From IMG/VR virus record IMGVR_UViG_3300029581_000002: a DNA stretch of 64,000 bases; one strand, given 5' to 3'. This DNA comes from a virus. Taxonomy: Duplodnaviria > Heunggongvirae > Uroviricota > Caudoviricetes. The notes below the pieces were generated by a model, which was not told the origin of the DNA, did no database searches, and saw nothing but the letters and a program-made list of their open reading frames with translations. The translations under genes and the position numbers were made by a program. The first letter of the stretch is position 1; every line of letters starts with the position of its first letter. Below are positions 14,764-48,317 of this stretch, in pieces.

Positions 14764-14837
14764 TGACTCAGGTGGGGCTCTAACCCACAACCCTCTCCTT
14801 AGGACGGAGATGCTCTATACTATTGAGCTACTGAGCC
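14764..14837 (-). tRNA. tRNA-Arg(CCT)
   Basis: Manual cloverleaf: acceptor GGCTCAG/CTGAGTC, D arm GCTC..GAGC, anticodon stem TCTCC/GGAGA with loop GTCCTAA (U33, A37). The T loop is atypical (TTAGAGC). Confidence 0.6.
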
Positions 14838-14844
14838 TTGAAAG

Positions 14845-15210
14845 CTATACGTTAATACTCCCAGTGTGTCTGCCTTTTACTTTAACAGAGTTAGCATCAA
14901 TGTCTCCTTGTACATTACCACCAACCTCAATACTGTTAGCTTCTATAGAACCTCCCACATTGCCTTTAACTTTAACACTATTACCATGTACAGTAAATGC
15001 GTCTCCGTCAATATCACATGTGTTGCAGTTAAGCTCTTTTACGTTACCAGTAAAACTGATATGTACACTATCCTTATTAGTTTCAGATATTAATTTACCA
15101 TTTACGTAAATTTTACGCTTGATTTGTGAGATAGTGATATTGTCCTCTTCAATGTTATAGGACTCATTATCAATAAATAACTTATTCATGATTCTTTTTA
15201 TCCAGTTCAT
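14845..15210 (-). CDS. bactofilin-like beta-helical repeat protein
   Basis: Repeats GNSVKVKGNVGGSIEANSIEVGGNVQGDIDANSVKVKG resemble bactofilin (DUF583) repeats. Confidence 0.4.
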   Translation of the reverse strand: MNWIKRIMNKLFIDNESYNIEEDNITISQIKRKIYVNGKLISETNKDSVHISFTGNVKELNCNTCDIDGDAFTVHGNSVKVKGNVGGSIEANSIEVGGNVQGDIDANSVKVKGRHTGSINV

Positions 15211-15809
15211 CTTCCTTCGTAATACTTAATCAGTTTATCAAATGCTTCAATCCTAGCATTGTGACCCTTCTCGTCATCGGGAGTCCACCAAAATGCCTTA
15301 CCATACCTGTCTTTAGGTGCGCCTAAGAACTCTCTATTGAACTCTGGAAACATAGCAACTACATCACGTTCATCGTAGATGTTGATTCCTCTTTCTGTGC
15401 CAGCTATAGCATGTTCAATGCAGAAACACATTCCCCAGTATTCTGAATGGTCTTCAAACAGCTTCTTAGCTTTTAGTAAGATAGTGTGCTTATTGATTCT
15501 TTCTGTGTACCAATGGATGAGTTTATCGAAGGCTATAAGCCTGTGTTTCTTCTCATCTACGGGCCACCAAAAGACCAGCCTAGCTACTTCTTCTTGTTTG
15601 ACATTACCTCCTAGAAACTCTGGGTTAAACTCCGGAATTAATGCCACTAATTCATTATAAGAGGGAGGTATTCCTTCTTTAAACACTCCGTTGAATGCTT
15701 GCTTCATATAGTGGCACATACCACCATTCTTATCACTACCTGGCTTTGTATCTTTATCGTACAAGTCTTTAGCAGTCTTTAATCTTTTAATAATTTCTAA
15801 GTTAGTCAT
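15207..15809 (-). CDS. hypothetical protein with internal tandem duplication
   Basis: Two about 50-aa repeats (..PEFNPEFLGG..FWWP.DEK.H..IAFDKLI.WY) within 200 aa. Confidence 0.45.
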   Translation of the reverse strand: MTNLEIIKRLKTAKDLYDKDTKPGSDKNGGMCHYMKQAFNGVFKEGIPPSYNELVALIPEFNPEFLGGNVKQEEVARLVFWWPVDEKKHRLIAFDKLIHWYTERINKHTILLKAKKLFEDHSEYWGMCFCIEHAIAGTERGINIYDERDVVAMFPEFNREFLGAPKDRYGKAFWWTPDDEKGHNARIEAFDKLIKYYEGR

Positions 15810-15829
15810 CTCTTTCCTTATTAAGTTAG

Positions 15830-15901
15830 TAGTCCCAGGCAGAGTCGAACTGCCATTTCAGGTTCCGTAGACCAGCGTTCTATCCATTGAACTATGGGAC
15901 C
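15830..15901 (-). tRNA. tRNA-Arg(ACG)
   Basis: Acceptor GGTCCCA/TGGGACT, D arm GTTC AATGGATA GAAC, anticodon loop CTACGGA, T arm GGCAG TTCGACT CTGCC. Confidence 0.6.
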
Positions 15902-16049
15902 ATACAGGAAGCAATTCCGATTTAACGGCCGCCCTTGCCAGTATCACGTACTGGGCTTTTCACGTGGACGGTCTGCCAGCATAACTCACAGTATTACTTA
16001 CATGCTTCCTTTAAAGTTTTAGCCTCTTCCAGCGCAAGAGCACTTATAG

Positions 16050-16316
16050 TCACTCTTCGCCATAGTACATCAAGTATAGCACCTGCTGACGCAAACCATA
16101 TCTACGTGTAACCACGTTGGCTTCCGCTCTCCTGGAAAGCGCAGCATTGATACTCCTCTTGAGTTTATCGGCATCAAATAGCAAACCAGTCACTCCTACT
16201 AATCCATTAGGCTCATCAGCGCAGATGTAGTCTACTGCTTCAAAGAGCTGGGCTTTAGTTTCAGAGCTGTTCACCTTCTGCCATTTCTTTATTTCTTTCT
16301 CAAAGTCCATAATCAA
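16050..16316 (-). CDS. hypothetical protein
   Basis: 88-aa ORF. Confidence 0.35.
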   Translation of the reverse strand: MIMDFEKEIKKWQKVNSSETKAQLFEAVDYICADEPNGLVGVTGLLFDADKLKRSINAALSRRAEANVVTRRYGLRQQVLYLMYYGEE

Positions 16317-16687
16317 TTAAGTGCTTCGAGTTCTTTAGCCAATTCTTCCAGAGACTTACCTTCGAGTTCTGCGTCTTGTTTCTTAGCCATAAGGTCAAGA
16401 ATCTTCTGACGCTTAGCTTTCTTCTCACTTTCAAGTAGACGGTCTTCCTGTTCTTGCAACTTAACATCAATAATGTGTTTTGCAATATTGAATTTCAGTT
16501 CAAGTTCGGTAGTGTCTTTAGTCCGGGTTTTGATGAAGCTTTCAGTTTTAGACTCTTGCAATTTCTTGTTAAGAGCAATTGCAATATTGTCAAGTTGAAT
16601 TAAGGGTAAATCCCACAAGTCTTCAACAGAAAGAACTCCACGTTGCGTGTTAAAACGCAATTTCATTCTAGATGCTTTCTCAAACAT
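16313..16687 (-). CDS. hypothetical protein
   Basis: 124-aa ORF predicted to be coiled-coil. Confidence 0.4.
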   Translation of the reverse strand: MFEKASRMKLRFNTQRGVLSVEDLWDLPLIQLDNIAIALNKKLQESKTESFIKTRTKDTTELELKFNIAKHIIDVKLQEQEDRLLESEKKAKRQKILDLMAKKQDAELEGKSLEELAKELEALN

Positions 16688-16689
16688 AA

Positions 16690-46471: not shown

Positions 46472-46497
46472 AATTTCAATAACTTTTAGTGAAACAA

Positions 46498-46779
46498 TTA
46501 CTCTTTATATATTCTAATTCGAGATTTACGCAGATGTACACGCATTCGTTTAACCTCGGACAGAATCCAATTACGTCTGCATTGATGTAACCATGCAATT
46601 ACATCTTCGTCAAATAATAATTCTTGACCACAGTAGTATGTGCCACTGTAGTAAGTATCAAGCTTTGGTCTTAATATGTCATGAGGACTATCAGTAACTA
46701 TGTATTGATAATCCTCACCTCTTATTAATTTCAGCTTCTTTGACTCCTTGCGAAGTTTCTTTAATAACCTTGCTTTCAT
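46498..46779 (-). CDS. hypothetical protein
   Basis: 93-aa ORF. Confidence 0.35.
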   Translation of the reverse strand: MKARLLKKLRKESKKLKLIRGEDYQYIVTDSPHDILRPKLDTYYSGTYYCGQELLFDEDVIAWLHQCRRNWILSEVKRMRVHLRKSRIRIYKE

Positions 46780-47129
46780 TTTAATAGTTCCAATTTAGCT
46801 ACGTCCTTATCATACCATATCCCAATCCAGAAGTTGTCTACAAAGTTCCTATGATTCATGATGGTATAATTAAGCCTTAAGACATCACTAGATATAAGAT
46901 AGTAATTCTTCCTATCAGTAGCCTCCAATGTTTCTTTGAGCACTGCGTGCTTGCCAATAATTTGAATATTCCTTGTAATAGCGAATGGTAATGAAATCGC
47001 TGCCCCAACTGTTGCTATTGAGAATACAATCTCAACTGCCACTGCAACTTCTCTTAGGTCTTTAGACCCTACTCGCGAAAGACATACACAAATAAGTAAA
47101 ACAATCACTGCAATAATAAATAATCCCAT
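46776..47129 (-). CDS. hypothetical membrane protein
   Basis: 117 aa with two N-terminal TM helices. Confidence 0.35.
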   Translation of the reverse strand: MGLFIIAVIVLLICVCLSRVGSKDLREVAVAVEIVFSIATVGAAISLPFAITRNIQIIGKHAVLKETLEATDRKNYYLISSDVLRLNYTIMNHRNFVDNFWIGIWYDKDVAKLELLK

Positions 47130-47157
47130 AAAATTGATATTTAAACGTTAATAATAG

Positions 47158-47676
47158 TGGACCTAGGCGGAGTCGAACCGCCGTCCAAACAACCCTCATT
47201 AATAAGATTACGTGTGTCTCTATTTTATTACATCAGCTGTTGAGTTCAGCATGTAGGTAGTTTTACTAAGAAGCCGAGTGTTAATTCACCAATTACGTCT
47301 CCCTCGTAGGGCTACGACTTAGTTGTTCACAAACTACCAAACTGGGCTTGACCGAACGGTCGCTCCACCACTCCATTTACGTTGGAGAACGTTTCTATTT
47401 GTAACCCATAGATAGGTAGTGGAGATTTCAGCTTTACTAACCTTTGGCTTTCAAGTTAAGTGGGCTGCCCTATATGCTTCTTCCCACACCTCTTCTGTTT
47501 CTAGGTCTCTCCAATTAACCCGACTTAGAGCTAAATTAATAGATAAGCCAGCAGCTTAGGCTGCCATTCTTACTTCAGTGTTTCCACTTAAATTGCTGTA
47601 TCATTATTAAAGAGTTGGTACGAACTCTACACGTCTTACTAACTTGTAATCGCCTGTCAAAACCAAATCTAGGCCC
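47158..47676 (-). ncRNA. tmRNA-like RNA (SsrA-like)
   Basis: Minus-strand 5' end GGGCCUAGAUUUGGUUUUGACAGG resembles the tmRNA 5' consensus GGGGCUGAUUCUGGAUUCGACGGG. The 3' end GGCGG TTCGACT CCGCC TAGGTCC A gives a T arm plus acceptor pairing with the 5' end. A short tag-like frame ..GGA AAC ACT GAA GTA AGA ATG GCA GCC TAA (GNTEVRMAA*) ends near nt 120. There is no ORF over 519 nt. Confidence 0.4.
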
Positions 47677-47812
47677 ATAGAACGGCATGATTATCCTCTC
47701 ATGCCAGGAGGTCTCTCAAACCTGAACAAAAAAGCTATCAGTATCTTCCTGTGCTACATTGAGTAGCGTACCCATTACAGACTTAATAGCCTAGGAGTTA
47801 TTTTTATTCCAT

Positions 47813-48166
47813 TTAAAATGGTAAGTTCCCTTCATGTTTCATCCAACTATAAACTACAATTTCATAATCTGGGAAATCGTTGGCAAGTTTAATACAACTG
47901 TCAAACGATAACTCTGTTATGCATATAAGAGGGTAATCATTGTCAAGCCATTCTCTAATTACATCCTTATCAGGAATATGCTCATCCAATGACCATTTAA
48001 GCTCACGTTCAAGTCTTTCACGTATCGTATTTAATTTAATATGGTCATGTGTTCCATATATAACATTTAATATGTAATACAATAAATGGCTATTGAACTT
48101 ATCAACATCGCTAATAAGAATATGCCTCTTGGCATTCCTTAAAGAATTAACTGCATTCTGATTCAT
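47813..48166 (-). CDS. hypothetical protein
   Basis: 117-aa ORF. Confidence 0.4.
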   Translation of the reverse strand: MNQNAVNSLRNAKRHILISDVDKFNSHLLYYILNVIYGTHDHIKLNTIRERLERELKWSLDEHIPDKDVIREWLDNDYPLICITELSFDSCIKLANDFPDYEIVVYSWMKHEGNLPF

Positions 48167-48245
48167 ACACTTATTAATTAAAAGCCCAAGTGTGTTTCAC
48201 AACATGACTGGGGCAAGCCTAAACTATACAAAACTTTAAAATGAT

Positions 48246-48317
48246 TGGGAGAGGATGGGAGATTCGAACTCCCTCCGCCAGTTCGCAACTAGCCTTCTAC
48301 CATTAAACTAATCCTCT
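48246..48317 (-). tRNA. tRNA with encoded CCA; anticodon uncertain (GCG/Arg-like loop TTGCGAA)
   Basis: Acceptor AGAGGAT/ATCCTCT followed by C-CCA, D arm GTTT AATGGTA GAAG, T arm GGGAG TTCGAAT CTCCC. Confidence 0.45.

Follow-up and report, generated by a model that had tools for sequence, protein, structure and literature searches.

A block of transfer RNA and tRNA-like genes with strain-level allele turnover in a putative Zeta-type crAss-like phage of the human gut

The DNA analysed here, a window of 64,000 nucleotides (nt) from the IMG/VR record IMGVR_UViG_3300029581_000002 (Caudoviricetes), carries a block of transfer RNA (tRNA) genes. By shared features only, the window would belong to a Zeta-type crAss-like phage lineage of the human gut. 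The tRNA genes are spread among open reading frames (ORFs) over 33.5 kb, most densely between 39.3 and 43.0 kb, and the block comprises some 25 canonical tRNA genes, one amber suppressor, five atypical tRNA-like genes and one transfer-messenger RNA (tmRNA) (Table 1). An earlier sequence-only reading of the window, made without database searches, had described about 27 minus-strand tRNA genes, scattered as singletons and clusters in a phage context; the number, the end coordinates and the layout were all confirmed. The genes of the window form two opposed blocks and all tRNA genes lie in the minus-strand one, co-oriented with the replication and early genes, which starts near a switch in GC skew at about 54 kb. 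Together with MT835470.1, a human-faecal record of 117,447 bp that overlaps the window at positions 63255-64000 and is 97.7% identical to the related contig L150, the window represents essentially the whole genome, of about 181 kb as judged from contig offsets and with a GC content of 36-37%. Since the remaining 117 kb in MT835470.1 contain no tRNA genes, the block holds the only tRNA genes of the genome.

Of the 28 tRNAs that ARAGORN predicted in the window, 27 lie on the minus strand, from position 14763 to 48317. With the Rfam tRNA model (RF00005, gathering score 29 bits), 26 genes reached at least the gathering score in a default scan and 28 with laxer filters, the additional ones being Ser-GCT and Tyr-GTA. 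All 28 Rfam matches were on the minus strand, with scores of 38.5 to 76.7 bits and E-values from 1e-15 to 1e-4. A total of 27 genes was common to both methods and one more, at 21779-21862, was found by Rfam alone. Two tRNA-like genes fell under the RF00005 threshold, 28814-28890 with a lower score and 40703-40782 with no match to the model at all. In 26 of the 28 RF00005 genes the anticodon loop has 7 nt, including U33 and a purine as residue 37; the exceptions are 21779-21862 and 42936-43010. The plus-strand Arg-TCG gene called by ARAGORN (33760-33836) was rejected, as it is the antisense of Ser-GCT and lacks Rfam support, and a scan for further tRNA-like elements based on the T-loop and acceptor pairing yielded nothing convincing. 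The dinucleotide AT precedes 18 of the 28 tRNA genes at positions -2/-1, and T stands at -1 before 23 of them, which suggests that the genes have an RNase P context or a cassette boundary in common.

Most candidates that had been folded by hand were accepted by ARAGORN and Rfam. Every isoacceptor listed by the sequence-only reading was recovered, namely Arg (CCT, ACG, TCT), Leu (TAA, TAG), Met, Gln, Thr (TGT), Asp, Glu (CTC, TTC), Ser (GCT, TGA), Phe, Trp, Asn, Lys, Cys, Pro, Ile and Tyr, together with a His tRNA with G-1 opposite C73 and an Ala tRNA with G3:U70. The 'second CAT tRNA' of that reading, overlooked by both predictors, is real and kept in relatives. Its anticodon set stood as far as the isoacceptors were concerned, but the CTA suppressor had not been recognised and the supposed lack of a Gly tRNA was an error, as a tRNA-Gly (TCC) is present. 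The lack of Val holds, no canonical Val tRNA being found in the window or in relatives of any clade.

Table 1. Genes of the tRNA block in the window (Rfam scores refer to RF00005 unless another family is named).
Gene	Position	Strand	ARAGORN	Rfam (bits)	Remarks
tRNA-Arg (CCT)	14763..14837	-	yes	59.0	
tRNA-Arg (ACG)	15829..15901	-	yes	60.8	unchanged among close relatives
tRNA-like, non-canonical	21779..21862	-		38.5	18-nt anticodon loop AAUUUUAGUAUGCGCACA
tRNA-Leu (TAA)	24182..24268	-	yes	55.2	class II
CAT tRNA	24923..24997	-	yes	70.5	elongator Met or Ile2
tRNA-Leu (TAG)	26715..26797	-	yes	53.9	class II
tRNA-like, non-canonical	28814..28890	-		27.3	loop CU-UAU-AC; below 29-bit gathering score
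tRNA-Gln (TTG)	28985..29057	-	yes	60.5	
tRNA-Thr (TGT)	31556..31639	-	yes (structure)	57.8	84-nt allele, extra variable arm
tRNA-Asp (GTC)	31697..31770	-	yes	55.6	
tRNA-Glu (CTC)	32074..32148	-	yes	59.9	
tRNA-Glu (TTC)	33354..33427	-	yes	62.1	
tRNA-Ser (GCT)	33775..33863	-	yes	53.8	class II; laxer filters
tRNA-Phe (GAA)	36476..36551	-	yes	58.1	
tRNA-His (GTG)	36850..36924	-	yes	59.7	encoded G-1 opposite C73
tRNA-Ala (TGC)	37539..37614	-	yes	64.9	G3:U70
tRNA-Arg (TCT)	38119..38192	-	yes	67.9	
tRNA-Ser (TGA)	39288..39374	-	yes	57.6	class II
tRNA-Trp (CCA)	39384..39459	-	yes	47.6	
tRNA-Asn (GTT)	39573..39645	-	yes	76.7	
tRNA-Lys (TTT)	39899..39973	-	yes	63.4	
tRNA-Cys (GCA)	40056..40128	-	yes	51.3	
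tRNA-Pro (TGG)	40353..40426	-	yes	64.0	A1-U72 allele
tRNA-Ile (GAT)	40528..40602	-	yes	74.1	
CAT tRNA, non-canonical	40703..40782	-			CUCAUAA loop; read from sequence; adjoins suppressor tRNA
Amber suppressor tRNA (CTA)	40783..40855	-	yes	62.7	loop UU-CUA-AA
tRNA-Gly (TCC)	42443..42515	-	yes	58.4	
tRNA-Tyr (GTA)	42602..42686	-	yes	41.9	class II; laxer filters
tRNA-like, atypical	42936..43010	-	yes	52.5	nominal anticodon CAA
tmRNA	47155..47676	-		85.7 (RF00023; gathering score 47)	522 nt
tRNA, atypical (GCG)	48246..48317	-	yes	43.0	

Among strains with 96-99% identity in the neighbouring DNA, tRNA genes were often swapped for very different alleles with the same anticodon. The allele of the window was replaced in 25 of 30 relatives for Pro, 19 of 28 for Leu-TAG, 16 of 28 for Tyr, 16 of 31 for Ala, 14 of 30 for Lys (with the alternative allele also occurring in a distant clade), 12 of 31 for Phe and eight of 17 close relatives for Arg-CCT. 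The Thr-TGT slot is filled in some close strains by an ordinary 74-nt allele, and the Asn alleles of relatives are very different, one form having 88 nt and a long variable arm. When 150-nt flanks of at least 95% identity and a tRNA of less than 80% identity were demanded, replacement was observed at 18 of 28 loci for Pro, at 14 each for Lys and Tyr, 13 for Ala, 12 for Phe, eight for Arg-CCT, five for Thr and four for Asn.

The same concentration was seen in alignments of longer regions. In four pairwise alignments of 22 kb, six to ten of the seven to 13 low-identity segments were tRNA genes, which account for 9% of the bases. In 48 locus comparisons taken together, 340 segments were strongly diverged and 187 of these (55%) overlapped tRNA genes, against 15% by chance; as the comparisons are non-independent the binomial P is inflated, and 55% versus 15% is the robust figure. 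Divergence starts and stops where the tRNA genes do. In no allele lineage do the anticodon or positions 73-74 vary; positions 32-33 and the anticodon stem are the most variable parts, with 11.4% and 10.7% of sites, respectively. The CAT tRNA at 24923..24997 differs between relatives chiefly by compensatory changes in its anticodon stem. The His tRNA, which reads ...atatG|GTGGCAT...ATGTCAC-C, is identical in 31 of 31 relatives.

Such turnover might be neutral, the tRNA genes being dispensable passengers that accumulate and are shuffled by recombination at shared motifs or by mobile elements, and not by selection. The slots are indeed polymorphic for presence and absence as well as for replacement, and one relative has a tRNA-like gene split by an insertion. 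Identical Tyr and Lys alleles occur in clades with flanks just 67-78% identical, and the Tyr allele of the window recurs unchanged in a clade with flanks 69-78% identical; identical alleles in diverged backgrounds therefore imply transfer. In addition, homing endonucleases are given as the main differences between related Zeta phages in PMC12386605. However, the replaced alleles keep high-scoring cloverleaves, the same slot keeps the same anticodon and discriminator base, and divergence stops at the tRNA ends. Gene order and near-complete amino-acid coverage are likewise preserved across clades with proteins 62-80% identical. Because cloverleaf, anticodon, order and boundaries are kept, purifying selection for function combined with turnover of the tRNA body fits better, and neutral shuffling is an improbable source of the pattern.

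The anticodon set follows a simple decoding scheme. Each four-codon box except Val has one U34 tRNA (TGC, TGG, TGT, TCC, TGA, TAG) and each two-codon pyrimidine box (NNY) one G34 tRNA. The purine boxes have U34 tRNAs, some with an additional C34 tRNA (TAA/CAA, TTC/CTC, TCT/CCT, TTT, TTG), Arg CGN has ACG, and two CAT tRNAs are in the set. If U34 reads whole four-codon boxes, about 91% of codon occurrences are covered in both early and late genes, leaving Val (6%), ATA (2.5%) and CGG uncovered.

A set of tRNAs could also compensate for codon usage, an AT-rich phage supplying those tRNAs for which a host of higher GC content serves it poorly. Nearly all wobble positions are U34, matching the favoured A-ending codons of the phage; the relative synonymous codon usage is 2.9-3.8 for AGA and 1.9-2.2 for TTA, and CCA, CAA, GGA, ACA and GCA are favoured as well. 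For the comparison with a host, proposed as a check by the sequence-only reading, a crude and weak Bacteroides proxy was used, the plasmid p5482 (47% GC). The most phage-enriched codons relative to this proxy were AGA (+2.97), TTA (+1.51) and CCA (+1.24), but codons with a cognate tRNA were not more enriched than others (Mann-Whitney P = 0.28, with the same weak proxy). Other observations speak against compensation too: the set spans nearly every amino acid and not a few mismatched codons, a Watson-Crick-matched phage tRNA exists for only 44-46% of codon occurrences, the commonest family-box codons (NNT: GCT, ACT, TCT, CCT, GGT) have none, and the codons matched by the G34 tRNAs end in C and are avoided by the phage. 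Neither would compensation explain the turnover of alleles at a fixed anticodon. It probably contributes for A-ending codons, and is unlikely to account for the block.

In view of the near-complete coverage, the low proportion of Watson-Crick matches and the lack of enrichment, the set looks like a near-minimal full decoder and not like a targeted top-up for particular codons. Translational autonomy or a codon mismatch with the host had been suggested from the sequence; autonomy fits the coverage of about 91%, the tmRNA and a gene for a CCA-adding-like enzyme, and mismatch would explain the set in part at most. The large lytic genomes of T4-like, T5-like and huge phages carry tRNA genes by the tens, in some cases together with a tmRNA, and large tRNA sets and tmRNAs in huge phages are reportedly exemplified by the work of Al-Shayeb and colleagues from 2020. 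The present lineage differs in being crAss-like and of podovirus type, with a predicted Bacteroides host, and in having one tRNA per codon box instead of redundant isoacceptors.

The tmRNA matches RF00023 over its full length and has an acceptor GGG.../...UCC with G3:U70. The tag frame reads GNTEVRMAA before the stop; in relatives the start of the tag varies by indels of 3n, and all tags end in RMAA and a stop. The tmRNA was not called by ARAGORN at default settings. With a lowered threshold only, ARAGORN proposed a permuted tmRNA at 46786-47247, which was rejected in favour of the full-length Rfam match.

All tRNA genes of the block encode N73-C74, and C75-A76 is encoded in none but 48246-48317. 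Outside the window, MT835470.1 (L197) encodes at 11043-11807 a nucleotidyltransferase of 254 amino acids with a PolyA_pol head domain (PF01743, E = 2.7e-17), which is predicted to be a CCA-adding-like enzyme. The missing C75-A76 would fit a phage-encoded enzyme of this type.

On the best reading, the block is a pool of replacement tRNAs that the phage supplies itself, and tRNA-targeting defences of the host have probably shaped it; we put the probability of this reading at roughly 0.55. In the mechanism that we infer from the genes, the phage would express its own tRNA pool early, and its translation would stay independent of the host pool when the latter is depleted or cleaved during infection, with the tmRNA rescuing stalled ribosomes. 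Diversifying or balancing selection would act on the tRNA bodies with decoding identity kept; selection on the bodies is suggested because whole alleles are swapped with anticodon and discriminator fixed. Host tRNA-targeting nucleases would be the most plausible selector, and alleles may be exchanged by recombination between co-circulating phages.

A role of phage tRNAs against tRNA-targeting defences has been proposed or demonstrated, with anticodon-loop variants (PMC10264068), neutralisation of PARIS (PMC11464382) and evasion of retron effectors (PMC11555353). These tRNAs are alike in that the phage has its own copies of isoacceptors, and the variation of body and anticodon stem-loop with the anticodon kept is what evasion of tRNases predicts. 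They belong to coliphages and mycobacteriophages with identified nucleases, whereas the present system is known from genes alone, and here whole alleles are replaced between strains and not just single positions of the loop.

Apart from the non-independence of the locus comparisons, several points weigh against a pool shaped by defences. Recombination favoured by motifs common to tRNAs could create hot spots without selection. Stems generally outpace loops in tRNAs, so the excess of variation in the anticodon stem is only suggestive. The genes for His, Arg-TCT, Arg-ACG, Ser, Cys, Gln, Glu and Asp never vary, and a pool without Val leaves 6% of the codons dependent on the host.

The five atypical genes depart from the cloverleaf in different ways. 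The one at 21779-21862 has a sound cloverleaf body with 18 nt where RF00005 has a 7-nt anticodon loop, and is called Val (CAC) by ARAGORN only when a 13-nt 'intron' is allowed. Splicing of the loop was rejected, as on reading the sequence no contiguous deletion yields a U33-NNN-R37 loop; Rfam detected no group I intron in the relatives. A role as antisense RNA was equally without a target, no complement of the loop being present in the window and five matches in contigs, two of which lie in homologous coding sequence, being due to chance. In L018, with proteins about 67% identical, the ortholog has an almost unchanged loop and compensatory changes in the acceptor and T stems. In a clade at about 62% the slot is taken by a different odd tRNA-like gene, with the common motif AGUAYGCG in its loop. 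With its 18-nt loop and no deletion that restores a canonical one, the gene was not accepted as a Val tRNA and is regarded as a conserved structured RNA.

The gene at 28814-28890 has a D arm of only 4 nt and, in the Rfam alignment, an 18-nt insertion in the variable region. It is kept in L007, L042 and L055, and an almost identical copy is present in L014 and L043. Most relatives have in this slot a canonical CAT tRNA (GGGCCCG...) that is tRNA-Ile2-like. Because UAU would read AUA and an Ile2-like CAT tRNA takes the place in relatives, the slot looks like that of a putative AUA (Ile) decoder and not of a Gly or Val tRNA. The idea that the elements at 21780 and 28814 might serve Gly and Val was thus not supported, the one having an 18-nt loop and the other a UAU loop.

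The CAT tRNA at 40703-40782 combines a canonical loop and a 6-bp anticodon stem with a D-loop of 14 nt, a T stem of 4 bp and an acceptor that can be extended to 8-9 bp. Among Rfam families it comes closest to tRNA-Sec, with 24.5 bits where the gathering score is 47. In relatives the stems change and the D-loop is constant, and at 13 loci an initiator-like CAT tRNA is found in this slot instead. The allele of the window can be drawn by eye, without statistical support, as an 8/4 tRNA with A73-C74; drawn in the same way, the allele of L037, L048 and L067 requires a bulged U. In L050 the slot contains a CAT tRNA-like gene split by an insertion after CTCATA (position 37/38), in which Rfam found no group I intron at the gathering score.

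The gene at 42936-43010 has A1-U72, a GC content of 36% and the loop G-U-CAA-U-C with U37. A G32-C38 pair is possible, which leaves a 5-nt loop, and the long arm of a Leu tRNA is lacking. One compensatory pair change was seen in relatives, and the counterpart in L057 has a 6-nt loop. The gene at 48246-48317, with A1-U72 and C73, is the sole one of the block with an encoded CCA, and its alternative allele (L069-L071, L074) has the 6-nt loop UUACAA.

In the literature as far as it was searched, odd cloverleaves within phage tRNA clusters have their nearest parallel in the 8/4 allo-tRNAs (PMC5389517), which are described together with 9/3 forms. Besides the 8/4 drawing of 40703-40782, which also lies in a phage tRNA cluster, the anticodons GCG and UAU recur among the atypical genes. 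The abstract of that paper names Ser, His, Cys and Sec species, whereas the anticodon here is CAU; the gene of the window also has a 14-nt D-loop, no long variable arm and a second allele that needs a bulge. An 18-nt anticodon loop or a near-absent D arm, as in 21779-21862 and 28814-28890, was not found in the searched passages of PMC5389517.

The amber suppressor is found in all clades. Its anticodon, A37A38, A73, acceptor stem and 31-39 mismatch are invariant, and the other stems covary through compensatory changes. A conserved CTA suppressor with an efficient CUAAA loop might serve an alternative code (code 15), in which it would read TAG in late genes and the other tRNAs would accompany the recoding. 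Recoded relatives are described in PMC12386605 and bioRxiv 10.1101/2021.08.26.457843, and in a sister lineage (L191, L192), with the large terminase subunit TerL and the portal protein 55-56% identical, these genes contain 16-24 in-frame TAG codons each. The TAG codons of this lineage stand opposite Gln at 31 of 82 aligned positions; as they align mostly with Gln, the CTA tRNA is probably of Gln type.

In the lineage of the window, by contrast with the recoded sister, TerL, portal and neighbouring structural ORFs have no in-frame stop and are intact in the standard code. ORF cover over the 117 kb rises merely from 0.938 in the standard code to 0.949 with TAG read-through, no in-frame TAG was seen in the genes of the window, and TAG terminates 19 of 194 called genes (about 10%). 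Extra stops after TAG were not commoner than after TAA or TGA, and tandem stops of the Lera type were not enriched. A rise in stop-to-stop ORF cover at 52-60 kb on TAG read-through was rejected as a sign of recoding within the window, the TAGs lying upstream of ORF starts or at gene ends. The genome of the window lineage is not recoded, and the CTA tRNA is kept without in-frame TAG to read. As far as the sequence goes, support of an alternative code is excluded for this lineage, and we consider it extremely improbable as the role of the block.

The suppressor may act on host translation or may be a retained family trait. Zeta clade 8 phages are alike in having a CTA suppressor without in-frame TAG and without suppression, according to PMC12386605. 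The code-15 gut phages (bioRxiv 10.1101/2021.08.26.457843; PMC9523058) share with the lineage a CTA suppressor and close relatives in which TAG is a sense codon, probably for Gln; the genome described here differs in having no in-frame TAG and in using TAG as a stop. A contig of 270 kb (IMGVR_UViG_3300045988_069849; L118) is TAG-recoded, its cover rising from 0.26 to 0.97 on read-through, and was considered as the late region of the window phage. It was rejected, with only a 450-bp lysin domain in common, relatives that are other contigs of 185-190 kb, and a true late region that is unrecoded. Since it also carries window-like sequence, the contig is probably a chimera joining two phages. The group of L118-like gut phages of 185-190 kb (L114-L144) is also heavily TAG-recoded.

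A more far-reaching version of the defence-shaped pool can be put forward tentatively, with the odds against it. The block might be an arms-race locus, with tRNA cassettes exchanged among co-circulating Zeta phages and kept polymorphic by tRNA-targeting defences of Bacteroides. The atypical genes (18-nt loop, UAU and extended-acceptor CAU) would be specialised products of this conflict, maybe tRNase decoys or unconventional decoders of AUA or Val, and the orphan amber suppressor might act on host messages.

A search of a phage collection with the window gave no close match. IMG/VR contains dozens of relatives, some near-identical and others far more distant, and all of them come from data sets of the human gut. 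Beyond the end of the window lie crAss-type genes for TerL (phrog_6681, E = 1.8e-69) and a portal protein (phrog_6547, E = 4.2e-59), and in tblastn TerL is 28-32% identical to TerL of Crassvirales, Bacteroides and Azobacteroides phages. MT835470.1 also encodes PolA and NrdD. GC skew and gene orientation switch at about 54000-54700, with a lower GC content from 54 to 60 kb; the switch is probably the origin from which the replication and tRNA block and the opposite block diverge.

These features agree with those of the Zeta crAss-like phages (proposed Echekviridae; Lera and 42 genomes), as given in the available passages of PMC12386605. Members have genomes of 155-190 kb with up to 34 tRNAs at the start of the replication block. 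The Bacteroides-associated clade 8, for which Bacteroides is the predicted host, has 172-188 kb, 35.4-36.9% GC and 20-29 tRNAs. Genome size, GC content, a block of 20-34 tRNAs within the replication block near a predicted origin, PolA, a gene for a CCA-adding enzyme and a crAss-related TerL are all alike. The same passages make no mention of a tmRNA, of atypical tRNA-like genes or of allele turnover between strains, which are present here.

Several protein genes and one further RNA lie among or near the tRNA genes, all on the minus strand. A RAGATH-34 RNA was matched at 45172-45279 (120.9 bits, gathering score 60.7), about 270 nt upstream of an ORF of 575 amino acids (43174-44901), the sole match of which is phrog_850, 'RNA-binding protein'. 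The two may form an RNA-protein pair within the tRNA block. A truncated PurA-like protein of 355 amino acids is encoded at 29079-30146 (Pfam Adenylsucc_synt, E = 8.7e-35); it matches phrog_1211, '2-aminooxy adenylosuccinate synthetase' (PurZ-type), and its best PDB matches are ordinary PurA. Also among the tRNA genes are an RNase H gene (20632-21105) and a gene for an SPFH/Band-7 protein of 653 amino acids (33951-35912), which is 100% conserved in close strains. Near the end of the window, a glucosaminidase-domain protein of 1251 amino acids is encoded from 61763 to 64000 and on beyond the window end (L074, 8486-12241). It is hypervariable among otherwise near-identical strains and several long contigs break there; a search of contigs for the protein encoded at the window end gave no match.

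With 20-34 tRNAs already reported for the Zeta family, the large tRNA block, the orphan CTA suppressor and the genome architecture are known from PMC12386605. In the portion of the literature searched, the tmRNA, the five atypical tRNA-like genes and the strain-level allele turnover were not found. A large tRNA set is thus expected for the family, and the inventory alone adds little. What the comparison of strains adds is that, in a phage group that is among the most abundant in the human gut, strains diverge mainly at their tRNA genes, with decoding identity fixed. If evasion of tRNases is the cause, the phages would offer a natural allele series for about 12 isoacceptors that is testable against Bacteroides nucleases, and the tRNA content of crAss-like phages would be linked to their host range. 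An amber suppressor that is conserved in a genome without recoding, beside a TAG-recoded sister lineage, is relevant to the question of how the reassignment of stop codons begins or is lost.

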